A stretch of DNA of 64,000 bases from positions 247,224 through 311,223 of the forward strand of contig ML996694.1 of NCBI GenBank assembly GCA_010356995.1, written 5' to 3'. Source of the stretch: Trichodelitschia bisporula. Lineage: Eukaryota. Positions 9,956 to 43,462 of this stretch are shown here, one piece after another (position 1 is the first letter of the stretch; each line of letters starts with the position of its first letter). The translations under genes were made by a program, and so were the position numbers. The notes under the pieces are model-generated. The model did no database searches and had not been told where the DNA came from. It was given only the letters and a program-made list of their open reading frames with translations.

Positions 9956-12514
9956 TATGATTATGAATCGTTTATCCGCGCTGGAGTCGCCGTGCGGTTA
10001 TGCGTTCAGTCGAATCGAGTCGTCTGTCGTCTGTCGAGACAAGGAGCGAAACCAATGGGACCGGCCAAAGGAACGTACGGGCGAGCCCAATGGAATACGA
10101 ATAGGATGTGGGAAGGTGCAGTGTCTTTCTTGATCGTTATTCTCAAAAGGGTTTCGTAGCAGGCCGGCTGACGAAGTCGAGAAGCAGAAGGAAACTCAGT
10201 TCCAGCTCAGCCACATGCGCCCTGTCCCCAAGAATATACTTCTGGATTTGCCGAGAAGCCAGCTAATGCGTTTCAAGGGCGATGACGCCGATGAAGAAAT
10301 GGAGAATTGAAGGGCGACTGGTGATGAGTTGTGCGGGGGCACTAAGTGTCGATTAGAGATGACGAGCGGGGATGGTGGGGCGGGGGAGGACGTCGCGGGC
10401 GAGATTGAGCAGTTGCGGGTCTCTCTGATCGGGGAGGGTGGGTGAGTCCGGATGAGCGGTGGGGCGGGAGGGTGTGTGCGATTCTGTGGTGAGGGAGTAT
10501 GGGCGATTTCAGGTAGATGTCCGGCAACGACAAATTGCGGGTTCGTCCCGGGACAACCACTTGGCCTGAATATTATGGTACAGGAAGCTCGGACAGTGCA
10601 ATATACAGACCAGAGAAGGTCTGGAGAAGACAACAAGGGCCGGGGTTGCTGGCGAGGTTTGGTTGATTGAATAGGAGTGGGAAAATAGCCAGCCTATTGA
10701 GAAGTGACCGCAAGTCCCGTAGGATTATCGATGGGTGATTCTTGTCTGATGTGAAGTGGGTTTCTGGGAGTAAGAGACAGCGTGAGAGAGGAAGAGGGAG
10801 AAGAAAGGTGAGGAGGAGAGTATTAGTCGGAAGGGGAGATGGATGGAGAAAGAAAGGAGTCCGACAAGACGACGACGTGTTGATGGAGAGATGTAAGAGA
10901 GCGAGGTGTCCGGTTGAGGAGGAAGAATTGGCATTGGGGGAGGGGGACGGGTCGGAATAGCGGAGTCACGGGGTTCCCATCTTTTTCGCGGGGGGTGCAC
11001 GAAGTTTTAGGGGAGGCTGGGGGCGGGGGGCTTCTCTTTGGAGTAGCGTCCTATGGCGCGGATTGGTGGGTTGGCGTCTAGACCTTGAGAGAGAAAGGCC
11101 CGATGGGAGGGGGTGGCCTGAATAGTTACAGTACAGTAGTACGCAGTACGGATGTACGGTAGAGGCAGGACGAGGCATTCATCCACTAAGATCGAAGGCT
11201 GTTCAGTGGCTAAGACGCTTAATGGTCTTAATGGAGGACACCAGCGTTTTGTCTCGCTCTTTGGCCTCCTCTTCTGACTCTGTTCTTCGGCCTCTTTTCT
11301 GGCTGTCGGAGGCTTGCAAGGCGCATGGTGATGTATCAGCAGTCCATCACGACCAATGACAGTGCAGCTATTAACATAAATCCAGGCCTATTTTCGCATT
11401 GAACTTGTCGGTCAGATATACTGCTTGCAACCGGCCGCCGTGCACACTCTCATGCAATGCGCAGATGTAGAGGATGCAGTACGTGCGGTCATCCTGATGT
11501 TCTATTCATAAACGTCAACCCCACGGTCGTCTGTTTCCAACTAACCCAAGACCTCGTCATCTACATGCAGCTTCCGTCAGGGGCAACATGAAACGCACCC
11601 GCCAGGAAGAAAGGAGGCGCTTCGGGAGACTTGATGCACTCACAGCACTGGCTGCGCCCAGCGGCAGCGTGCATGCAGGTCACATCCGCGCTTGAAGTGA
11701 CGAACATTGGCACTCGCTCATTGTTTTAACCTCCTCCCTAGGAGCAAGCCTTGTGGAGTGCATCAGCCGAGGGCCGCGTACGTCGTCGTCGTCACTTGCT
11801 GTCTCCTTGCCTTCATCTATCCTGCAGGCTGCAGCAAAAGCACCTATCCGCTTTCCAGTAACAATGTTGTATGAGGGAGGGCTAATGCATCCTACTATCG
11901 TACAAACAGTCAGCGTGCTTATTGGGGAATTGCCCATATTCTGACTGAGACGGTGAAGTCTTGATCTGAGGGGATACATTGCATCCTGTTCCATCACTTC
12001 AAGACGAACCTCTCAGACGGGAATTGGAGGGCCGTAGTCGATAACATTGTGACGTTCAGATTTGATGATGCCAGCTGTTGTTTCACGCTCCACGAATGCA
12101 CTCTGGTACGCAAACAAGTTCCAGTAGGAAACAAACGTTGCTCATCGTGTCCTCCGCAAACCTCAAACATTGATCGCTGAAAAGCTCGTCGCCTGGTCAC
12201 GTGCACGTCGAGCCCTATCGATACTGCCCTCCATGGCCAGCCAAAAGAAGTCGTGGCCCACTCAGTCCGCCAAACTGCCCAGGCCAGGCAGCAACGACAT
12301 TTCCCAGTGGCCCTTGGACGTGCATGCCAAACTCCCGGCCCAAGCGCGTCACGAACTCCCAACCCATCACATCCCTAATCTCTCCACATCACGACCCACA
12401 CCCACCCACCAGGTTCGCCCACCCGCCGCAAATCTCCCGCATCCCAACCCGAAACCACCATCTCCCCCCCCATCTATCGTCAACACACACCGCCCCCGCT
12501 CCCAATCTACCACC

Positions 12515-15346
12515 ATGCCCTCCACCGCCCCCGCCGACGACGACCCCGAAACGCCCATGGTGCTCGCCCGCCCGCGCCGCGCCAACGCCGGCTCCCACAT
12601 GTCCAAGCTCCTCGCCCTCGCCGAAGCCGAAGACGCCGAGCAGGCCGCCGCCTACGGCGAAATCTTCGCCGAAGCCCCGGATGATATCGAGTTCACGGCT
12701 GAGGGCGCCGACGACGGCGATGTCAGCCTGAGCAGCAGCAGCAGCGAGGACGAGAATGCGGGCGAGGAAGATGAGGGTGAGCGGGCTTTGCGCCGCGAGG
12801 AGCGTGGTGCGGCGGGCAAGCGCAAGCGCGAGTCCCTGCTGCAGCAGGCGATGAAGCGTGCGCGGGCGAAGACGGCGGCCAAGGCGGCGAAGGCGGTCAG
12901 GCTGGCGGAGGATGCATCATCGGCCGGAGATACGGCAGCTGTGGGTACAGCGGGGACAGCGGAGCGTCCGCGGAAGCGCTCTGAGCGCGTGTCGTGGCTG
13001 CCGACGGCTGACGACGGTCCCACGCGCGCGTCCTCGCGTAAGCTGGCGCAGATGAACCGCGCGGCGACACACGAGCGACTGAAGGAGAAGGAACAGCATC
13101 GGCTGCGCACGGTGGCAATCATGAAGGCGGCAGAGCAGCGAAAAGAGGGGACAAAAGCGAAGGTGCTCACACAGGCGGACCGGTTGGCCGCCGCCGCCGC
13201 GACAGAGCGACAAAATGCAAAGAGTTTGAATAAATGGGAAGAGACGGAACGGAGGCGCGTGGAGGAGCAGCGGGCACGGCTGGCGGCGCTGAAAAATCGG
13301 AAGCTTGAGGGGCCGGTCATCACGTATTGGAGTGGGCAGGCGGTTTGGCGGGGGGATACGCTCGTGTGGGTTGGCAAGCCTAGGGAAGAGAAGAAGACGG
13401 CTGCGAAAGGGCCGGGTATTTTGTGCGACAACAATAGCGCCCCGCCGACGCGGGAGGGGTCTCCCGCGGTGACATTGCAGGATCAGGCAAGCAAGAAGCC
13501 GGATGAGGAACTTCAGGGGGAGAAGAACGAGCAGCCATCCTCAACAACTCCCGTTCATTCGGAGAGCAACACGATCGACAAGGAGCCCAGCAACAACACC
13601 ATCAAAGTGGCTAAGCCCAATGCTACTACACCGAGCAACGACACCAAAGACGCCAACTCGCAGGCTACCACCCAAAGCACATCCGACGAAGCCACCATCG
13701 TCGTCCAACCCCTGAAGCGCCCCGCGTCACCTCCCGCTCCCAGATCAACCCTCCCTTCACAGCCTCCAGTCACTCAACCCTCCGCTCCGCCCAATCAAAC
13801 CTCCGCTCCGCCCAATCAAACCTCCGCTCCCCTCCCTCAACCCTCCGCCCCGCTCCCCACTAAACCCTCTGCTCCACCCTCTCAACCCTCCGCTCCACCC
13901 TCTCAACCCTCCATCCCGACCAGCACCCAAATCTCCTCCCCACCCACTCAACCCGCTCCCAAACCCCAAACCCTCGGCGAAATCCTCACCGCCCAGGCCA
14001 AATCAAACCCATCCGCAGACGACCACGATCACCCCATGCTCGATGCGCCCAGCCCCACAAAACCCGAGTCGTCGGCTGAGGAGGGCCCGTTTCTCGCCGG
14101 CATCATGCAGTGGGCGAATACCCCGGCGGGGCAACAGTCTTCGGGTGCGGTTCCGGCTTCGGCTTCGGCTTCGGTTTCGGTTCCGGCTTCGGTTTTGGTT
14201 TCGGCTTCGGCCCCGGCTTCGGCACCGGTTCCGGGCTCAAACTGGACCTCGATTCCGGCTTCTCCTTCAGCCCCCTGGCTCCCATCGGGTCCCCCGCCCG
14301 TACTGCCCGGCTGGCCCGCAGACCTCGAACCCCGTCACCAATTCCAAGTCTCTACCCGGGTTACTCCAGAAGAGCGCACAAGACTCGAAGCCCTATGGCA
14401 AGCGCAACAGCCCCCACGCCAACACCCACAAGTCCAAAACCGCATCCCCACCCCACCCCCCACCATCCCCCACCCCGTATCCACACATCCCGCCCCCCTC
14501 ACGAAATCCTCCTCTTCCGAATCCTCCTCCTCCGAACCCCAAACCACAACCGCAACCTACATCCTCCTCACCCTCCCCCCCCCCAACTCCACCACCGGCA
14601 CCCCAACCGAGCAACACACCCGCGACCGCGCCTCCCTCCTGCGCACCCTCCTCTCCTGGCCCGCGTCCGTGCCCACCACTGCGCCCTCCGCCCGCGCCAA
14701 GCTGGCCGCGCAGAAGAAAACGCCCTGCGTTGTCACTGGCGATCCGGCGCGATATGTCGATCCCCGCACCGGGCTCGCGTATAGGGATGCCAAGGCCTTG
14801 GCTGTGCTGAGGAAGGTTACTATGGGTGGATATCGCTGGTTGAATGGCGTGGGGGGCGGGATTTGGGTTGCGGTTCCGAGGGTCGAGGTCCCCGCTGACA
14901 CGACTGCGGGCGCTGGTTCTGGCAACGCGGTGGCCGGGGTGGGCGGTGTGAGGCCCGCACGGGGTGTGCCGGAAGGTTTCTGGAATCCGGATGCGGTTAA
15001 GCCGGCGCCTGCTTCGTTGTCCACGCCTGCTGATCCTGCGCCTGGGGGCCCGGCTCCGTCGTCTGCAACGCATTCCACTCCTGCTGTCGCGGGGCGCAAT
15101 CCAGCATCTGCTCCGCCTGCTCCGCCCGCGTCAGCTGCGCCAAAGGCCTCGGCGCTCGATGCCTCGTCTGTAAGCGTTGCGCCTGCGGCCCCGTGCGTGC
15201 CGCCCGGCTCTGGGAGGGGGAGTCCGGTGGTTTCGGTTGTTATTCCTGTTTCGCGCGAGGGGGTGGGAAGAGCTGAGGTGGAGGGTTCTGGACAGGGTGC
15301 GCCTGCGGGGGTGGGGGAGAGGCCGGATGTGAGCATGGAGGGGTAG
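12515..15346 (+). CDS. VPS72: SWR1 complex subunit Vps72/Swc2/YL1
   Basis: N-terminal YL1 motifs (RPRRANAGSHMSKLL, LTQADRL..A..TE..N..SL) and YL1_C (CVVTGDPARYVDPRTGLAY), separated by a long Pro/Ser-rich linker. ATG at 12515. Confidence 0.85.
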   Translation: MPSTAPADDDPETPMVLARPRRANAGSHMSKLLALAEAEDAEQAAAYGEIFAEAPDDIEFTAEGADDGDVSLSSSSSEDENAGEEDEGERALRREERGAAGKRKRESLLQQAMKRARAKTAAKAAKAVRLAEDASSAGDTAAVGTAGTAERPRKRSERVSWLPTADDGPTRASSRKLAQMNRAATHERLKEKEQHRLRTVAIMKAAEQRKEGTKAKVLTQADRLAAAAATERQNAKSLNKWEETERRRVEEQRARLAALKNRKLEGPVITYWSGQAVWRGDTLVWVGKPREEKKTAAKGPGILCDNNSAPPTREGSPAVTLQDQASKKPDEELQGEKNEQPSSTTPVHSESNTIDKEPSNNTIKVAKPNATTPSNDTKDANSQATTQSTSDEATIVVQPLKRPASPPAPRSTLPSQPPVTQPSAPPNQTSAPPNQTSAPLPQPSAPLPTKPSAPPSQPSAPPSQPSIPTSTQISSPPTQPAPKPQTLGEILTAQAKSNPSADDHDHPMLDAPSPTKPESSAEEGPFLAGIMQWANTPAGQQSSGAVPASASASVSVPASVLVSASAPASAPVPGSNWTSIPASPSAPWLPSGPPPVLPGWPADLEPRHQFQVSTRVTPEERTRLEALWQAQQPPRQHPQVQNRIPTPPPTIPHPVSTHPAPLTKSSSSESSSSEPQTTTATYILLTLPPPNSTTGTPTEQHTRDRASLLRTLLSWPASVPTTAPSARAKLAAQKKTPCVVTGDPARYVDPRTGLAYRDAKALAVLRKVTMGGYRWLNGVGGGIWVAVPRVEVPADTTAGAGSGNAVAGVGGVRPARGVPEGFWNPDAVKPAPASLSTPADPAPGGPAPSSATHSTPAVAGRNPASAPPAPPASAAPKASALDASSVSVAPAAPCVPPGSGRGSPVVSVVIPVSREGVGRAEVEGSGQGAPAGVGERPDVSMEG
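13770..13955 (+). repeat. Coding tandem repeat of ~21 bp (QPSAPPx) inside VPS72
   Basis: Repeated caaccctccgctcc(g/a)ccc units. Confidence 0.8.
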
Positions 15347-16000: not shown

Positions 16001-16214
16001 ACCGCTCCAGCGCATGCCCCATTTGCGTCAGCAGTATGGCCCGTCAACGCCAGGTGTGTCCCTCATTCACGCCAGCAGTATCCCTCATCCACGCCGGCAG
16101 TTATGGCCCGTTCGCGCCAGCAGTATGACGTGTCGAGTTGGTGGCGCAAGTGGACCCGTTCGCGGTGGTGGAGGTCGATCGGTTCGGGGTGATGCGGCTG
16201 AGGGTGGGAAGGTT

Positions 16215-16490
16215 GAGCGAGGTGATTGATGTGAGCGAGGTGGGCGAGATGGACGAGATGGACGAGATGGGTGAGGAAAGCGAGACGAGAGGTGAGCGAA
16301 GTGAGTGAAGATGGGCGCGATGGCGAGTGAGCGAGGTGAGCGAGGTGAGCGAAGTGAGCGAGGTGAGTGAGGATGGGTGAGGTTCATGCAGCTCTTCCGG
16401 TTTCTCAAGACATGATCGTGCGGCTCTTCCGGTTTCTCAAGACATGATCATGCGGCTCTTCAAGATATGATCGTGAGGCTTCTCAAGAAG
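16215..16490. repeat. GAGCGAGGT-type 9-bp repeats followed by a 32-bp tandem repeat
   Basis: (gagcgaggt)n at ~16215-16375; gctcttccggtttctcaagacatgatc(g/a)tgcg twice plus degenerate copies at 16391-16490. Confidence 0.8.
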
Positions 16491-19759: not shown

Positions 19760-19880
19760 CGCCTTGCTCCGTTGCTCCGTTGTTTCGCTGCTCAGTTGTT
19801 TCGGTGCTCCGTTGTTTCGTTGCTCCGTTGCTCCATTGTTTCATTATTGCGCTGTTCACATGTTCACATGTTCACATGTC
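19760..19880. repeat. Low-complexity tgctccgt/tgttcaca 8-bp repeats
   Basis: Visible 8-bp periodicity. Confidence 0.7.
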
Positions 19881-20025
19881 GTAGAGTTAATATCACGCAT
19901 TGTGAAGCACGTCTTTATACCGTATCGGACAAACTTCCGTTAACTGGTGGGCCCAATAGGTGGTCTCTCGGGTCTGTCCAACGGTGCGCCAAATCCTGGG
20001 ACAACGAGAAGATGTTACACAGCAT

Positions 20026-20248
20026 GCTTGGCTCGCCCGCCGTGGGGTCGATATGCTCGCGGAGCTGAAGCCTAGCTTGCCAGTCGTGGGGTGAATACGC
20101 CTCGCGGCCCCACGACCGAGCTTGCCTCTCGTGGGGTTAATACTCTCGCGACATGAAGCCTAATTTAGCTTGCCGTCGTGGGTTGACTGCGTTATACGTG
20201 AGAGATGTGCTGCTCCATTGGCCATAGCTTGGAATCTCGCGTGGGGGA
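20026..20248. repeat. Array of five ~45-55 bp degenerate units (AGCTTGCC-n-CGTGGGG)
   Basis: cgtggg(g) cores at 20041, 20085, 20130, 20177 and 20240, each preceded by (a)gcttg. Confidence 0.75.
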
Positions 20249-20315
20249 TTGTGGGGTGCCGTTGCGACTGGGGGGGCGGGATCGGCGGGCCGGTGCTGCC
20301 TTTGTGGCGTAGGAG

Positions 20316-20524
20316 CAAGGGCTGATCGAAAAGGTCATGTCCTCCCCCGCGACTACATAGACCTCCGCCCAGAGTCGGCAAGAGGGGAACATGACCTTTT
20401 CGGGTAACCCATGGGTGAAAATTTGTCGCCGTCCCCTGGAAAATTCTGGCTGCTTCTTGCTGGGTACTGTATGAAGCAAGGACTATTGGTGTGGGGGCGC
20501 AACGACTTTTTCACCCGGCCCTTG
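20316..20524. other. Double-hairpin structured element, related to the CEM1 intron element
   Basis: 14-bp perfect inverted repeat 20327-20340/20389-20402; gggtgaaaa/ttttcaccc at 20413/20508; closing caagggc/gcccttg at 20316/20518. Confidence 0.75.
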
Positions 20525-21165
20525 GGGAGGGGTAAGGCTGAGATGAGGTAAGCCGGGGGGCCGGGGGGCGTGGGGGCAACATTATAAAATGATGGGGTAG
20601 CGTGGGGCATTTGAGGAACCGTGAGGCGCTGAATGCGATGATGAGGCTTGTACTACGTAGGTCAGCCGTGAGCGGACTATGAGTAGATTAGAACTAGCCA
20701 TGGTGCGCTTCCATGTCTGCCGGGTGCCGCATTTCCGAGGAGAAGCGCACTACTAGGGTTCGCCGACCAAGGTCATTTTCAACTAACGACGGAATGGCCG
20801 CTATCGCAAGAGTAGGACAGCCTCGCAGCCTAACAGGACCATAATCGGAAGGACCAGCCTTCCTTTGGACTTTACCTCTCATAAGCCTCCGCGTGCGGCC
20901 TCTAGTAGCATGGCGGTCCTGCAAATGGACAGAAGGGTCCGGAGCCCATAGCTGAATTCGGTTAGCTGTAGGCCTTGTAGCCTAACATCCGCCTATGAAG
21001 TTGGCTTCGAGCTTATCTGGAGGCGCTTTGCACGAATGATACAATAGCCGACGAGGCTGAAATACTGGTTGACACCGAATCGGATGGGGCCAACAAGTCA
21101 ACTAACCCTCTAATCCCAAGCTACCGATGATCAGGCTAATTCACCGTTCCATCCAGAAAAAATCG

Positions 21166-21618
21166 CTAAAATCTCCTCTCCATCCCCTCGGCCTTCGGAC
21201 TCGTCTCCACAAACCCATGCCGCGCATACAATTTTTTCCCCTGCAGGTCCGCAATCAAGTTAACATACGCCCCTTCAGGCGCCTCCTCTTTGATATGATC
21301 AATCAAAGCATGCATGATCCAGTCGCCCAGACCACGCCGTTGATGCTCCGGTAAGATGGCAATGTCTACAATGTGGAAGTACCCTCCGCCATCACCGATG
21401 ATACGGCCCATACCAACGACCTTGTTACTGTCCAGGTGGAGGATATGTACCATGTACCAGGATCCAGCGAGGGCGAGTTCGGCCTGTGCGGCGGTGCGGG
21501 GCGTTAATCCGCAGCTAACGCGGAGGTGGAGGCACGCATCGATGCGAGGGGCCCGCGAGACGAGGATGTAACCCGGTACCGAAGAATCGGGCGCTATGGA
21601 ATCCTTTCGCTCATTCAT
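21166..21618 (-). CDS. GNAT-family N-acetyltransferase (intronless)
   Basis: VGMGRIIGDGG..FHIVDIAILPEHQRRGLG (acetyl-CoA motif A) and LYARHGF (motif B). Confidence 0.85.
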   Translation of the reverse strand: MNERKDSIAPDSSVPGYILVSRAPRIDACLHLRVSCGLTPRTAAQAELALAGSWYMVHILHLDSNKVVGMGRIIGDGGGYFHIVDIAILPEHQRRGLGDWIMHALIDHIKEEAPEGAYVNLIADLQGKKLYARHGFVETSPKAEGMERRF

Positions 21619-24968: not shown

Positions 24969-25318
24969 TGTGGCTTCGGGTTCGTGTCAACGACGATGTC
25001 GAGAATCGGGGTACGAGAAACTGATTCGAAGTTCGGATCCTGCAATTCGGGTAGCCCTCCGGGCGCAAGGCCCGAGGGAAAGTGCTTGCGACCCCGCCAA
25101 TGCCCAGTGTCTGCCCCGCCATGTTGCTATCACGAGTGTGGGGCAGCGGGGGGGGGCGGCGTCGCGCTAATGCACCGTTATCTGCACGCGATTTGCTACG
25201 GGGCTTACCTGAGCAGATCGTGGCGGCGGAGGACATTAGGAACATTCTCAGCCCTGTGCATATTATCATCGCGAGCTCGCCTGTCCCGAAGGAGTGTTCA
25301 CTGGAGTGGTCGTGATGT

Positions 25319-27207
25319 TCAGCCTTTGAATTTACTAAAACAAAGACAGGCATTTGTCCCGCCAAACCCGAAGCTGTTACTCAGCGCCACGTCCACGCGC
25401 CGATGCTGCGCCGAGTGCGGGATGTAGTTGCAGTTGAATTCTGAGGGTGGATCGCCGGGGTTGTCGAGGTTGAGGGTTAGGGGGATTACGTCCTGTCCAG
25501 TCTATCAGCGCACCCTCCTCCCCACGCCCACACTCAGCATCCGGGGCACTCACCTCCGCAACACTTTTAACCGCAAAAACTCCCTCCACCGCGCCCGCCG
25601 CTCCAAGTAGATGTCCAAGCGCACCCTTAACACTCCCGACATTAACCTCCACCGCCCTCGCCCACCCTTCCTCCCCAAGCAATACTTCCTTAACCGCCCC
25701 ATTCTCCGCCCGATCACCCAGCACCGTCCCCGTAGCATGCGCACTCACATAATCTACTTCCCGCGGCCTGCACCCGGCAAACCGCAGCGCATTCTCCATC
25801 GCCCGCCGCGGCCCCTCCCCATCCGCTCTCGGCTGCGTAACATGCCACGCATCACTACTGAGCCCATACCCGCGCAGTTCGGCATAGATCCGCGCACCCC
25901 GTGCCTTCGCGTGCTCTAGTTCTTCGAGGAGCATCACGCCCGCGCCCTCGGCGATGACGAATCCGCTGCGATCACGGTCGAAGGGCCTCGACGCACTCTC
26001 TGGCGTTTGAAAGGACGTAACAAGGCTGCGCGCGCGCGCAAACCCTGCAATTGCAAGCGGGTGAATGCACGACTCCGTGCCGCCCGCAAGAACGACATTG
26101 CAGTCACCATGCGCAATGAGCCGTGCTGCATCGCCGATGCTGTGCGCGCCGGTTGTGCATGCCGTAGCCGTAGCGTGGGTTGGGCCGCGGAAGCCGAATT
26201 TCATACTCACGTGCCCGGCAGCAAGGTTGATAAGTAGGCGGGGCACGAAGTGCGGCGAGACTTTCTTGTAGCCGCCCGTGGAAAAGGCGAGGGCTGTAGA
26301 GACGACTTCGTCGAGCGCGCCGATACCGGAGCCGATGTAGACGCCCTAGGTAGTGGGGTTTAGCATTGCGGAGAGGGTGTGGGTAAAGGGAGGGGTAAAG
26401 GGCTAGGTGAAAAAGTCGTGTCAGCTCCCCCCCAGCTGTTGTTAGAGACCAGCGACGAATGCCCGACACGACTTTTTCACCTAGCCCTTGGGTGAGTGTA
26501 CTACGGTCTCGGGCATAATGGGCGTTAAGGGTCCAAGGGCCAGCCGGAAAAGTGATGAGCTCCTTCCCCCGCGGCTTTTGGTGAGGCATATGGCCAGTGA
26601 ACCGGGGGGGGCGGGAACATCACTTTTCCGGGTGTTTTCTTCGGACCCTTAACATACATTCGGCCCGGCACCGTAGTAGCCATTGCAGAGCTGGACAAAG
26701 CATACTGTATCCCGCAAGTCCTCCTCCCGCTCCGGCCGCCATCCCGCGTCGTCCAGCGCCTCCGTCGCCGCGGCAAGCGCATACTGCGCAAAACGTGCTA
26801 TGCGCCGCTCCTCCTGTCTCAATTCAGCCGAAACCCCGTCCGCAAGCTTAGTAGACGTACACCCGGCTCTAACCAGTCACTCGCTCTCCATCCGCCTTCG
26901 GCCCTGGGGCCTTCGGGGATAGTCCCTGCTATCCGCACGGGGAGGCCGTCCCATTCCGCGCCCGCGAGGTGGCGGATGCCGGATTTGCTGGCGAGGAGGG
27001 CGGGCCAGGCGTGTTTTAGGCCTGGGGGTGGTTAGCTGGGCCGTTGATTGTGTGAGGAGGTAATGTGGATGGAGGTATAATGAGGGGATATGCGGCTGCG
27101 GCCGGGATATGCGCGCGGATGCTACGCCGGTGAGAAGGGGGAGGTGTACCAACGCCCAAAGGAGTGACGACTCCCAGGCCCGTAACTACGACGCGGCGCG
27201 CCGCCAT
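25319..27207 (-). CDS. CEM1: Mitochondrial 3-oxoacyl-ACP synthase (FabF/OXSM type)
   Basis: RRVVVTGLG, TACTTGAH (catalytic Cys), AHATGT, KGALGHLLGAAG, SNSFGFGGTNA. Introns 27149-27022, 26860-26814, 26705-26346 and 25553-25493. Confidence 0.92.
26398..26678. other. Intronic double-hairpin element (structured ncRNA or MITE-like)
   Basis: 25-bp perfect inverted repeat 26398-26422/26465-26489, followed by nested stems 26499-26514/26663-26678, 26524-26534/26643-26653 and 26544-26557/26618-26631. Confidence 0.85.
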
Positions 27208-27987
27208 CTTTCGCTATTTAGGAAGATGAAACTGATAATGGTGAAGTTATGATTTGTGGCGGCGAGAATGCGATGCGGGCACGTGGTTTGACGATGTGAG
27301 GTTGGTGTGCACGGATCACGTGGTGGATACGATGTCACGGAAACAGCAACGCTGAAAATTCAAGTCCTCCGCGCACAGTTCATCAGCCACCAATGTGATG
27401 AATCCAGATGCAGTTCTTCTTGACTCGCATCTCCCGCCCTTTGCCCAGATCCGCGCTCGTTTCCTGGAGCACTCCCATGCCATTCCTGCATCTGTTCCAA
27501 CCTCCGTTGCTTCCGCCGCTCGGCTCGGGAAGCCGAAGGGTCAAGTACGTCCTCATCTCTCCCGAGATACAGTAGCAGCCCACAAAGTTCAAATCAACCC
27601 CAATGCCACGCATGAACCCATCTACCATTCACCCCGCAATTTCTCGACGTTCGAGGCCTCGTCGATCGGCATGTCTCTCCACAACAACCCAAACGTCAGG
27701 CCCGCCACGCGCTAGGCACTGACAGTTGCGCCACATCTGCAGGCGGCCAGATGCGGGTGTCGTCAGGGCGTTGCGGGGGGAAGCGGGAGCATTGGCGCTT
27801 GGATGGGAATCATGGTTCATTTCCCGGGTTTGGGGGGAGCGTGCGGGGCTGGTTCTCGCGTGTTTGGTGGAGGGGAGGGATTAGGGAATGAGGTTAGGTA
27901 CGGTAAGTGGTGGAGGTTGGGTTTGCGGGATGGTTGTTGGGGAAATGATGATCACCTCTCCACCTGCTTTGAGGGGGAAAGTTCACG

Positions 27988-29060
27988 ATGGCAGCGCCGT
28001 GCAACTTTCCAACTCTCATCATTGAAATCGTCGCGGAAATCGCAATTGCAAAAAACCTCAGTTTCCAGAAACTCTCCCGCCTTCTGCAGCCCGCATACCC
28101 GCCCAGCCCTTGCTTCGCGTTCCCCCCCCCCAAATCCGAACCAACCTCGCCGCTACTCGCCGCTATTCAAGCCACTCGCTTCCACTCGCAGCTTGCAGAA
28201 TCCGCGACGCAAAACAACTCGGCAGGGCACTGGCATTGAACGCCCGCGGTCTCAACTCTGCTCCGCCTATCTCCCTGCCCGCGTCTGACCATCCCGCCTC
28301 ATGATCCTAAGAGCTAATGGAAAGAGTGATGTCGTCTCCACTACTGCAAAAGACAGAGAGGGCGATATCGCCTTTTCTATCAGCCTATGTCCCGTCAAAC
28401 ACGCGACTGAAGGACTTCGGGCGCTCACTGCATCCGTAAACCGATCAGTGACAAAAATGATACCCGTAGCCGTCCCGTCCGCAAGACCGCTCCGGCCGCG
28501 CGGCTGCAACTTCCCCGTAGCCCTCTCCCGTGATTTCATCTTCCCCCGTCCCCCATCCCCGGTCCTGCAGACATGGCGTGGCGAATATCTCGTTCCCTAC
28601 GGGCCTGCAGGAAAACGGTTGGGCCAAACGAACACGCATGAAAGGATCTACGCCACCATCCCGCTAAAACCCCCACCGCAAACACGCAAAACGCAGACGC
28701 AGAGTCATGGCCCGCGCCCTGCCAATTGTCAAATGCCATGGCGATGCCTCCGGTGTTAGCGTTCTGCGCGCGATTCAGGTCATTGCTGGAGATGGCTCCG
28801 GGATTGTGGGGGCTGGGGGAGGGCAAAGGAAGTGGGTGAGGCCGGTAAGATGGGAGCGCTGGAACTTCCTAGCTTTTTGGCAGGATTCTTACGACCCAGC
28901 TTCCTGGCCTTTGGCTACGGTGCTGGCGGAGTTCTTGCGCGATGGAGGTGCTTGGCGTGGCGTCCGGCTGCTGTGTTGGGGACTGGGCGTGCAGAATCTG
29001 GAGTATGCGGGGTGCAAAGAGGTTCAGGGAGTTGATATCACGGTATTGATGTCGTCGAAC
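27988..29060 (+). pseudogene. Possible disrupted gene with an F-box-like N-terminus
   Basis: MAAPCNFPTLIIEIVAEIA loosely resembles an F-box start. Protein-like fragments continue in different frames with no clear introns. Confidence 0.25.
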
Positions 29061-41354: not shown

Positions 41355-43118
41355 ATGACCGCCACACCCCGGGGCGCGGTCAGCACGCACATCCCTCTCA
41401 CGCAAAACACCGCGGAAGTCCTCGAATTCCGATGCCTGTACACACACGACCTGCGCCGCAAGCAGAAGCGCTGGCAAGACGGCCTGCTACGATACCACAC
41501 CTTTAACAAGCGGATAATGGTGTATGACGACGAGCGCCACCTCGTCGGGGACGCGCATTGGAAGCGGCCCGCCCCGATTGCGACCGATGAGGAACTCACG
41601 CTCGACGCTGGCGTGCTCGTTACAGTGTCCGAGCGCGTGGGCCAGGAAATTACAGACTTAACACCGCTTTTCGAACGCCGCACATCCAACGCCGCGAACC
41701 GCGACGCCGGCCGCACACTCACGCCCCGCCCTCTCTCCCGCGCCCCACCGTCAAAGCACGTGTCCCTATCCACCCTGCTCGGCGGCCCGAAGGGCATCGG
41801 TAAGGCTGCGCTGCCGACCCGCTCACCGTACGATGCCCGCCATGCTGACGCCAGCGACGGGCCGCAGGCTAAGCGCCGCCGCCTGGATTCTCTGCCGTCA
41901 AGTCCCGCGTACACTCTGCGCCCACAACCCGCCGTCCCCGGCTGCAGCTCGGCCGAGTTGGTGGTTGATCTGGTGTCCAGTGGTGGAGCGCCGCCTACGT
42001 CGCCAATTCGTGCGGCGCCGGTACCGAGGATCAAGACGCCAGCAGCGAGACCGTTTGCGCCACCGGCGAGGCCGCTTGAGCCAGCAGCGAGACCTACTGA
42101 GCCAGCTGCGAGACCACTAGAGTCAGTTGCGAGACCGACTATACCAGCTCGGGAGAGAACCGGCATACCTGGACCTGCACATCCCGTCGGCCCGGTTTCG
42201 GATTTTGCAGCGACGCGTCCCGCCAATTCACGTGCCGGTCTTGCAGTTCCAGCTCCAGCACCTGCACGGCCCGCATACGCGCCTCCGGACGTCACCATCA
42301 CCCGTGCAAAAACACTACCGAACCCCCCGGCTCCAAAGCCGACGAGAACCCCACACTGCGAGCCTGAAACCGGGCCCGAACTCGAACTCGAACCCGCCCA
42401 ATCCCCTCCAGCACCACTCCCCGCCCAACCACGCAGCCGAGCTCGCAAGTCCACAGCTCAGCAAACCGCGCCCTCTGTCATAGAACTCGAATCCGAACCC
42501 GAACCCCCAGCCCCTCCCGTCCCGAAACCGCGTGGTCGACCGCGCAAGACCCCGGCTCAGCACACCGCACCCTCCGCCGCAGCAGCCAAACTCGCAACAG
42601 CAGCAGCCAAACGTAAAGCTGCGCAGATAACCAAACCCCCTTCTGAACCACCCAAACCCCCCCCTCCCCCTTCCACACGCAACCCCCGCGCCCGCCCCCT
42701 GCGCCTCATGTCCGGCGGGCGGCCGACGCTGCTCTGCGCCCAGCCCCCGGCGTCGCGCACAAAACCCGCCGCGCCGAGAAGTGCGCCTACCGAATATGTA
42801 GACTTGGATTTCGACTTAGACTCGCCTTCTCCGCCGCGGGCGCGCACGGCCCGTGGCGGTGTTGGGAAAGGGAAGGAGCAAGGAAGGGTGCAAGGAAGGG
42901 AGCAAGAGGCTGGGAAGGCAGGCACGCCTCCCCCAGCAGGAACAGGCTCGACATCGTACGGCACGCCACGCGCGTCTGATTTTCCACCTTCGACGACGGT
43001 GCCGGTGTGTAAGCTCCCATTGGCGGGGGCGTGGACTGTTGAGGCGACGGATTTGTTTGAGTGGCGGCCGCCGGATTGGGAGAGGAGGGTTGCGCGGGAG
43101 GTGGAGAGTGATGGGTAG
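41355..43118 (+). CDS. DUF2439 (Mte1/ZGRF1 N-terminal-like) domain protein with Pro-rich tail
   Basis: EFRCLYTHDLRRKQKRWQDGLLRYHTFNKRIMVYD; conserved-looking C-terminal GAWTVEATDLFEWRPP. Confidence 0.8.
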   Translation: MTATPRGAVSTHIPLTQNTAEVLEFRCLYTHDLRRKQKRWQDGLLRYHTFNKRIMVYDDERHLVGDAHWKRPAPIATDEELTLDAGVLVTVSERVGQEITDLTPLFERRTSNAANRDAGRTLTPRPLSRAPPSKHVSLSTLLGGPKGIGKAALPTRSPYDARHADASDGPQAKRRRLDSLPSSPAYTLRPQPAVPGCSSAELVVDLVSSGGAPPTSPIRAAPVPRIKTPAARPFAPPARPLEPAARPTEPAARPLESVARPTIPARERTGIPGPAHPVGPVSDFAATRPANSRAGLAVPAPAPARPAYAPPDVTITRAKTLPNPPAPKPTRTPHCEPETGPELELEPAQSPPAPLPAQPRSRARKSTAQQTAPSVIELESEPEPPAPPVPKPRGRPRKTPAQHTAPSAAAAKLATAAAKRKAAQITKPPSEPPKPPPPPSTRNPRARPLRLMSGGRPTLLCAQPPASRTKPAAPRSAPTEYVDLDFDLDSPSPPRARTARGGVGKGKEQGRVQGREQEAGKAGTPPPAGTGSTSYGTPRASDFPPSTTVPVCKLPLAGAWTVEATDLFEWRPPDWERRVAREVESDG

Positions 43119-43462
43119 TTGGGATAGGTATCACGTCTTTTTGAGATCATTTCGGGATTGAAAAAGCAGGAACGGGGCATTTGACGATTCTGCATGGAGA
43201 TCCCGGAAGCATGATCACTTTGGGTTGGAAGTAGACGAGGCTCGTTCGATCTAGCTATGAAGAAACGCAATACAAGTCGCGCTGTGTCTAGCCGCGAACA
43301 CAATGCCTGGTATCCCGTGCGCCTATGCCCCTTAACGCCCTGTATGCACCATTGAACCCAATGCCCGAGACGTGCGAACAAACGATTATGTCCAACCCTC
43401 TTTCAGAGATCTTCTAAGCCGCTCCATGCGATGCTAGATCCCACCCATGCCCATGCCAGAGC

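Follow-up and report, generated by a model that had tools for sequence, protein, structure and literature searches.

The locus studied here raises the question of why one intron of a fungal gene should measure 360 nt and be filled with two long hairpins, whereas the three other introns of the same gene, as defined by the joints in RNA contigs, are 61, 47 and 128 nt long. That this intron is oversized was pointed out in a preliminary description of the same DNA, and the comparison within the gene bears it out. Three readings were put forward there, namely that the hairpins are a pair of small-RNA precursors hosted by the intron, that they form a structure that regulates splicing, or that they are non-autonomous MITEs nested in each other, with many dispersed copies being taken as the mark of the last. 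The window, i.e., the whole 64-kb stretch of DNA that was analysed, is a fungal nuclear region with 58% G+C, short GT..AG introns, a Fung_rhodopsin domain and housekeeping genes. The gene and the intron in question are as follows:

25309..27262, minus strand: putative mitochondrial-type beta-ketoacyl-ACP synthase II gene (CEM1-like; the KAS gene), recognised by Pfam, NCBIfam, solved relatives and the joints in RNA contigs
25309-25491, 25553-26345, 26705/6-26812, 26860-27020 and 27149-27262: exons of the KAS gene, taken from RNA contigs
26346..26705, minus strand: spliceosomal intron of 360 nt, phase 0, with GT at 26705 and AG at 26346 and a joint in RNA contigs

The KAS gene matches Pfam PF00109 (5.7e-36) and PF02801 (2.2e-28), which are the N- and C-terminal domains of KAS II. 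Its large exon matches fabF of NCBIfam at 7.8e-105, a score that is under the equivalog cut-off because one exon alone was scanned, and the top four places among its solved relatives are taken by mitochondrial KAS of plants and human (1e-88 to 3e-87). In a protein atlas, the KAS exon matched bacterial FabF clusters only. With both Pfam domains, the fabF match and mitochondrial KAS as the nearest solved relatives, the name CEM1 given to the gene earlier appears reasonable, as far as sequence likeness can tell. The 360-nt intron begins with GTATGC at 26705, finishes with CTAG at 26346 and is placed between ..RDT and GVYIGSG.. of the protein. Two palindromic repeats, a short form (H1) and a long form that contains a core related to the short form, lie within it:

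26398..26489, no strand assigned: H1, short-form palindromic repeat of 92 nt, its 25-bp stem perfect and its loop 42 nt long
26499..26678, no strand assigned: 180-nt palindromic repeat of the long form (TACTACGGT...ACCGTAGTA), TA at either end, recognised by its inverted arms
26535..26634, no strand assigned: the long form's core, related to the short-form hairpin as a diverged copy (AAGGGCCAGCCGGAAAAGTGATG.. / ..CATCACTTTTCCGGG), recognised by alignments

The arms of H1 (26398-26422 and 26465-26489) are complementary at 25 of 25 positions, enclose a loop of 42 nt and have the termini AAGGGC...GCCCTT, just where such a perfect stem and loop had been described. The 25-mer occurs in the window as the two H1 arms and nowhere else, and two or more matches were reached in 0 of 100 shuffles. 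The long form has outer arms of 36 nt that are 81% complementary (26499-26534 and 26643-26678) and inner arms of 30 nt that are 77% complementary (26541-26570 and 26605-26634); all the stems that had been quoted for a nested hairpin of ~180 nt are present at their places. When the 360-nt intron is folded as RNA, the minus strand reaches -165.4 kcal/mol (z -8.9) and the plus strand -178.5 kcal/mol (z -8.6), and folding as DNA gives a z of -8.1, with 0 of 100 shuffles being as good in each of the three cases; the stem of the long form spans ~60 bp with bulges in the fold. Among the 49 short-range inverted repeats in the window, the four longest are all members of the hairpin repeat family. The hairpins of H1 and of the long form are real and far beyond chance. 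The antisense strand is predicted to fold slightly better than the pre-mRNA, which is more in keeping with a palindrome in DNA than with a structure under selection in the transcript.

Copies of the core occur five times in the window, inside as well as outside genes: H1, the core of the long form and three further copies (H3, H4 and H5). These three, together with a fragment that resembles an outer arm, are located as follows:

20316..20413, no strand assigned: H3, short-form copy, apparently intergenic, recognised by its inverted repeat and by blastn and nhmmer
20413..20527, no strand assigned: H4, short-form copy adjoining H3, apparently intergenic, its left arm degenerate and with indels
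28307..28390, no strand assigned: H5, decayed short-form copy, ~1.1 kb past the 5' end of the KAS gene
43322..43371, minus strand: weak fragment like the outer arm of the long form, in two collinear blocks that are split by extra bases

The approximate core consensus has CCAAGGGC and GAAAAAGT with five variable bases between them, then, a few bases on, a C-run and a loop, after which these parts return as a mirror image, and the alignment agrees with the earlier claim of a common arm motif that is followed by a C-run. This shared arm motif has five matches in the window, a number that was reached in 0 of 100 shuffles. The arms of H3 were found by blastn and nhmmer with E-values of 1.7e-07 and 3.9e-07 and those of H4 with 4.2e-07 and 1.8e-04, both copies having belonged to the training set. 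Around H3 and H4, from ~19940 to 21169, there is no ORF of at least 150 aa with a Pfam match. A covariance model was built from three copies, and its search of the window gave 16 matches at E up to 10. The training loci, matched on each strand, account for six of these and H5 for two, the other eight having E-values of at least 0.13. The core of the long form scored 89.5 bits as a member of the training set, H4 was missed by the search, and H5, which stands outside every training set, scored 27.8 bits (E 4.3e-05 on the plus and 0.0023 on the minus strand), its arms having nhmmer E-values of 0.017 and 0.29. The likeness of the fragment at 43322-43371 is weak (26 nt at 81%, the ATGCCCGAGAC block, E 0.46). 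Two adjacent pairs are found among the elements, H1 with the long form and H3 with H4.

The copies extend to the rest of the genome. Contigs of four public runs from the same organism were aligned to 25300-27300 at 80% likeness, with X1 being a DNA-type run and X3 and X4 coming from one sample of a second study; X3 and X4 were assigned to RNA from four GT..AG joints in their contigs. In X1, 21 contigs align to the 2-kb stretch, 19 of them only in part. The locus itself accounts for one of them (0 differences), a contig from which the window may have been taken and which so gives no independent support. By identity, one contig falls at 99% or more, two at 95-99%, six at 90-95% and 12 below 90%. 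About 20 other DNA contigs match the two elements at 80% identity or more and have unrelated flanks. The pieces listed for the other X1 contigs (26398-26490/91, 26410-26477/91, 26526-26600/09 and 26645-26678) cover the two elements and nothing else. Over the H1 region, 26398-26490/91, the likeness is about 83-87% and is followed by unrelated sequence, and at 26448 ten contigs have G where the locus has A. The matches begin and end at the ends of the palindromes, i.e., at 26398, 26490/91 and 26678, and the letters that follow them disagree among contigs (agreement 0.56-0.68), which indicates that the flanks of the copies differ. Element copies are also found within long RNA-type contigs of other loci, one of 4745 nt at a depth of 258 in X3 and one of 7921 nt at a depth of 1200 in X4. 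The exact 22-nt arm had 0 matches in a metagenome scan. A degenerate two-arm pattern gave six metagenome loci, which we judged to be unrelated, their common positions being just those that the pattern imposes; a single GC-rich palindrome was picked up twice, once in each orientation (L002 and L004), and two others (L001 and L005) are a different palindrome with 36-bp arms from an organism at 42-45% GC. The two metagenome scans thus yielded no relatives of the repeats beyond the organism itself.

The bin 26305-26371, which adjoins the 3' splice site, and all the exon bins have the same X1 depth, 414, as the single locus contig, and the regions of the splice sites are therefore single-copy. This result bears on the possibility that the whole intron is an introner-like element, that is, a member of a self-propagating family of structured introns that created the intron position. 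Such elements are multi-copy, are longer than regular introns and have stable predicted structures, as stated in the available part of one report (PMC3609843), and symmetrical proliferating introns exist in Hypoxylaceae, according to the accessible portion of another (PMC8469720). The repeats studied here nevertheless end within the intron, leaving as single-copy sequence a 27-nt stretch that follows the 5' splice site, a 52-nt stretch that leads up to the 3' splice site and a 9-nt spacer. Other contigs match at 26398-26491, 26526-26609/15 and 26645-26678 only, copies occur in intergenic DNA and, unspliced, within long RNA contigs, and the Hypoxylaceae elements, as far as that source's accessible portion describes them, are defined by a different palindrome (PMC8469720). 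We consider an introner-like origin of the intron to be exceedingly improbable and largely refuted.

The 180-nt element is a repeated unit in its own right. DNA contigs from elsewhere match the long form at 26526-26609 and at 26645-26678, and past 26678 their flanks are unrelated. In the copy that aligns from 26526, a comparison by eye of the preceding 30 letters with 26496-26525 finds 17 of them identical in register, the 9-mer TACGGTCTC among them, and homology of this copy extends at least 19 nt beyond TTAA. A second genomic copy, which aligns at 26645-26678, has letters like the right arm of the core before this segment and unrelated sequence after 26678. Since the outer arm, TTAA and the core are shared in register by another copy, the 180-nt unit is itself a repeated long form; judged from these alignments, it ends at 26678, and its outer arm, TTAA and core move as one. 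The nested arrangement described earlier holds only in part, as the long form recurs elsewhere in the genome and is no private nesting event at this locus. Likewise, the letters TA and TTAA do stand at the ends of the stems where they had been compared with transposon target sites, and TTAA, with homology continuing past it, is internal to the larger repeated unit and is hence no target site. A piggyBac-type element with a TTAA target was rejected on the same grounds, TTAA being internal and another copy being homologous for at least 19 nt further out.

Taken as an intron with inserts, the locus becomes ordinary. Without both inserts, the 27, 9 and 52 nt that remain amount to 88 nt, inside the 47-128 nt size range of the gene's other introns, and we propose that two MITE-like or foldback palindromic repeats were probably inserted into an ordinary intron of ~88 nt and brought it to 360 nt. 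The elements are short (92 and 180 nt) and contain no ORF beyond chance frames; they have inverted arms (25/25 in H1, and 36 nt at 81% and 30 nt at 77% in the long form), and homology stops at the palindrome ends. The five copies in the window and the ~20 further contigs with different flanks support the MITE-type reading. The hairpins are dispersed multi-copy repeats, not locus-specific RNA genes, and they belong to the genome rather than to the gene, being found in intergenic DNA, beside other genes and inside other transcripts. With regard to the three readings offered at the outset, the dispersed copies and their unrelated flanks were found as a MITE would have them, and a consistent target-site duplication was not.

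Target-site duplications were sought at six boundaries with a slack of 4 nt on either side and among the five copies, and none was consistent. The boundary scan returned GGGT at H1 with a 1-nt offset (-1), TA at the long form and none at H3, H4 and H5; the TA at the ends of the long form may be a target duplication or just the last pair of the palindrome. No transposase domain of Pfam was detected in 46 ORFs of the window, which were picked from the 105 ORFs of at least 150 aa, the other 59 overlapping the chosen ones. Both samples that contain the locus have the full intron with 0 differences and no empty site. The insert block as a whole is flanked by a direct repeat with nine of ten positions identical (26364-26373 and 26681-26690), which was equalled in only 16 of 2000 shuffles. 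Insertion of a single block with a 10-bp duplication was considered and not adopted: the block is without terminal repeats, and other H1-like copies are without the long form after them.

The hairpins could also be read as precursors of small RNAs (milRNAs or hairpin siRNAs) that are hosted by the intron and cut by Dicer, either once splicing is done or in its place, into RNAs of ~20-25 nt, which would act on the copies or on target genes. This reading, which we hold to be unlikely, draws on the perfect stem and 42-nt loop of H1, the bulged ~60-bp stem of the long form and the position of the hairpins in a transcribed region, with an unspliced RNA contig spanning the intron. It also draws on precedent, since MITE-derived miRNA genes are documented in plants, as the available text of one study has it (PMC9641971), and in fungi, mi/milRNA loci often go together with protein-coding genes, as the part of a second study at hand states (PMC9757828). 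The same part of the latter, a re-analysis of fungal hairpin RNAs, speaks for caution, fewer than half of the reported fungal mi/milRNA loci passing basic standards (PMC9757828). Against Rfam 15, the hairpins gave six matches at E up to 1, with scores of 18.9-27.7 bits against thresholds of 75-168, none of which reaches the gathering score; the best match has 27.7 bits against a gathering score of 100. Models of miRNA precursors match H1 weakly (best E 0.0046), but all six matches are far under the gathering scores, as any long hairpin would give. This sub-threshold result is easier to reconcile with a palindrome in DNA than with an RNA under selection, and the elements are a dispersed multi-copy family, no locus-specific gene.

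What the inserts do to the intron can be seen in the RNA contigs. Their joints connect 25491 to 25553, 26344 to 26705 and 26812 to 26860 in X3 and X4 and 27020 to 27149 in X3 only, and all four have CT..AC ends on the plus strand, from which it follows that the contigs are spliced RNA. The joint from 26344/5 to 26705/6 skips exactly 360 nt at depths of 35.5 (X3) and 99.7 (X4), and the 360-nt intron is excised exactly at its own GT..AG. An unspliced contig of 419 nt (26316-26734, 0 differences) is present at depths of 16.2 (X3) and 35.6 (X4), and the unspliced share is roughly 25-30%, a rough measure taken from contig depth in one sample. Over the three other introns, the bin depths are entirely accounted for by exon overlap (e.g., 33.9 x 15/67 = 7.59 for 25501-25567), and the depth of 27042-27108 is zero; by this bin arithmetic, unspliced cover of these three introns is zero in X3 and X4. 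Among the gene's four introns, an unspliced form is detectable for the 360-nt intron only. Contamination with genomic DNA is an unlikely source of the unspliced contig. If the intron is retained, the reading frame would meet a stop after 18 intron codons, ahead of the part that encodes the active-site region.

A regulatory reading of these data would be that folding of the hairpins, perhaps depending on temperature or on a protein, sets the proportion of spliced to retained CEM1 pre-mRNA and thereby tunes mitochondrial fatty-acid and lipoate synthesis. It agrees with the unspliced contig being confined to the hairpin-bearing intron (16.2 against 35.5 in X3 and 35.6 against 99.7 in X4) and with the stop that retention places upstream of the active-site region. 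We nevertheless regard it as very improbable: even without regulation, lower splicing efficiency is to be expected of a long, structured intron where short introns are the rule, and the unspliced contig fits such passive inefficiency equally well. X3 and X4 come from a single sample in a single study, and contig depth is a poor measure. Moreover, the same repeats occur at unrelated places, and the pre-mRNA strand folds no better than the antisense strand.

The insertion of MITE-like repeats leaves one feature of the stems to be accounted for. When three copies were compared, compensatory changes were found in seven of the 26 stem pairs, which is unlike the simple decay of inserted copies and suggests that something keeps the arms complementary while subfamilies diverge. 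The pairing could be maintained by a constraint from transposase binding, by copying through fold-back or by selection that acts on the hairpin. A more elaborate version is a hairpin-dependent mobile element that copies itself via a single-stranded fold-back intermediate, with the genic copies giving rise to intron-hosted dsRNA that feeds RNA silencing and lowers productive splicing of CEM1, a scheme that we find decidedly doubtful. The compensatory pairs, the target-site duplication that was sought and not found and the two adjacent pairs among the five copies would point in the direction of fold-back copying. Together with the direct repeat around the insert block and the 46 ORFs in which no transposase domain was detected, they leave room for a less ordinary way of copying, which five copies in a window are too few to claim.

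Under the MITE-like reading, a transposase acting in trans would insert the repeats at the DNA level, and the inserts would be tolerated because they landed in a region that is spliced out. Each insert would then fold back in the pre-mRNA, so that the 5' splice site and the branch point would effectively lie close together. Stems can reduce the effective distances within introns in yeast. Short repeats evade repeat-induced point mutation in many ascomycetes. Structures in introns have also been hypothesised to regulate processing, in the part of the source available (PMC12350175). The cost of the inserts would be some unspliced transcript that ends at the stop 18 codons into the intron. Processing of the 25-bp stem by Dicer, if there is any, would be a by-product common to such repeats, with no sign of a dedicated RNA gene. 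The repeats inserted in the KAS intron are most likely ordinary selfish DNA in an intron.

For annotation, this means that a long CEM1 intron is no evidence for an intron-hosted RNA gene and that the hairpins are to be masked as repeats. The locus provides a clean example of short palindromic repeats that thrive in the genic regions of a compact fungal genome, in which the insert-bearing intron is still exactly spliced, yet is the sole one of four with a detectable unspliced form. The absent target-site duplication and, provided that they hold genome-wide, the compensatory changes in the arms would make this repeat family worth a closer look.

Several known systems resemble the KAS intron in part. 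The plant foldback or hairpin MITEs that give rise to miRNA genes likewise combine a near-perfect long hairpin, a dispersed element and a transcribed gene region, in so far as the available text describes them (PMC9641971); unlike these miRNA genes, the hairpins of the KAS intron are known from sequence and folds, and their Rfam scores are far below threshold. The introner-like elements of Dothideomycetes (PMC3609843) and the symmetrical sister (stw)introns of Hypoxylaceae (PMC8469720) are, in the accessible parts of these reports, longer than usual, repeated and strongly structured, as the KAS intron is. In both of these systems, as described there, the repeated unit is the intron itself, including the splice sites, and there are no flanking duplications (PMC3609843, PMC8469720), whereas the KAS intron has its inserts inside single-copy splice-site regions and copies of them outside introns, too. 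The Hypoxylaceae (stw)introns were also considered as members of the same family and were rejected, since their defining palindrome is different and the repeat is the intron itself, as the accessible part of that report describes them (PMC8469720). MITEs in general are short non-coding elements with inverted-repeat ends that are moved in trans, of which the mimps of Fusarium are an example in the available part of one study (PMC3599309). By description, mimp (miniature impala), a Tc1/mariner-type MITE of Fusarium oxysporum, is the nearest in kind to the repeats of the KAS intron. According to the same part of that study, mimp is 200-220 bp long, has terminal repeats of ~27 bp and a TA target and is moved by impala (PMC3599309). 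In contrast to this TA target and the impala partner, the elements of the KAS intron have no consistent duplication and no transposase among the 46 ORFs of the window, and they are almost wholly self-complementary, while the centre of mimp between its terminal repeats is, as described there, non-palindromic (PMC3599309). What mimp, by its available description, and the repeats of the KAS intron have in common is that they are short (about 90-220 bp) and non-coding, have inverted-repeat ends, are multi-copy with diverged subfamilies and lie in or near genes.

Two diverged copies of the hairpin family, H3 and H4, abut at 20316-20527, in a stretch that is apparently intergenic. Within the 360-nt intron of the CEM1-like beta-ketoacyl-ACP synthase (KAS) gene, H1, the 92-nt short-form palindromic repeat, and the 180-nt long form are separated by 9 nt, an arrangement that parallels the abutment of H3 and H4. 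Adjacent pairs occur twice among the five family copies found in the window, which suggests either that insertion took place beside existing copies or that the copies shared a common target motif. The fifth copy is decayed and is positioned in or alongside an unannotated plus-strand ORF region:

28307-28390, H5, decayed fifth hairpin-family copy, ~1.1 kb past the KAS gene's 5' end

The entire 307-nt insert block of the intron, within which H1, the spacer and the long form lie, is flanked by a 10-nt direct repeat (26364-26373, CATTGCGGAG; 26681-26690, CATTGCAGAG) whose two units are identical at 9 of 10 positions. A match of this quality was equalled in only 16 of 2000 shuffles of the flanks. 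The bracketing repeat may have arisen by chance or may be the relic of a single insertion of the whole block; if the latter is true, the ancestral KAS-gene intron would have been ~43 nt long. A 12-nt tandem direct repeat is also found at 26381-26404 (GGGTAAAGGGAG / GGGTAAAGGGCT), with the second unit overlapping H1 at its left terminus.

Intron 1 of the KAS gene (27021-27149), at 128 nt, is also longer than its neighbors (47 and 61 nt); neither a family copy nor a strong hairpin is present in it. Short-period tandem repeats are also present in the window, partly within long ORFs, the YL1-domain gene (12128-15343) among them:

13764-13922, period 21 nt
14124-14243, period 6-18 nt
16204-16382, period 9 nt
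19764-19859, period 8 nt
42038-42142, period 21 nt

L001 (401-479) and L005 (401-482), contigs from a single metagenome that were both matched by a two-arm degenerate search pattern, contain a distinct palindromic repeat whose arms are ~36 bp long. L001 possesses an additional partial copy upstream. The metagenome palindrome likewise has AAGGGC...GCCCTT termini, together with a GGAAAAGTGGA box, and its resemblance to the fungal family is mostly imposed by the search pattern.
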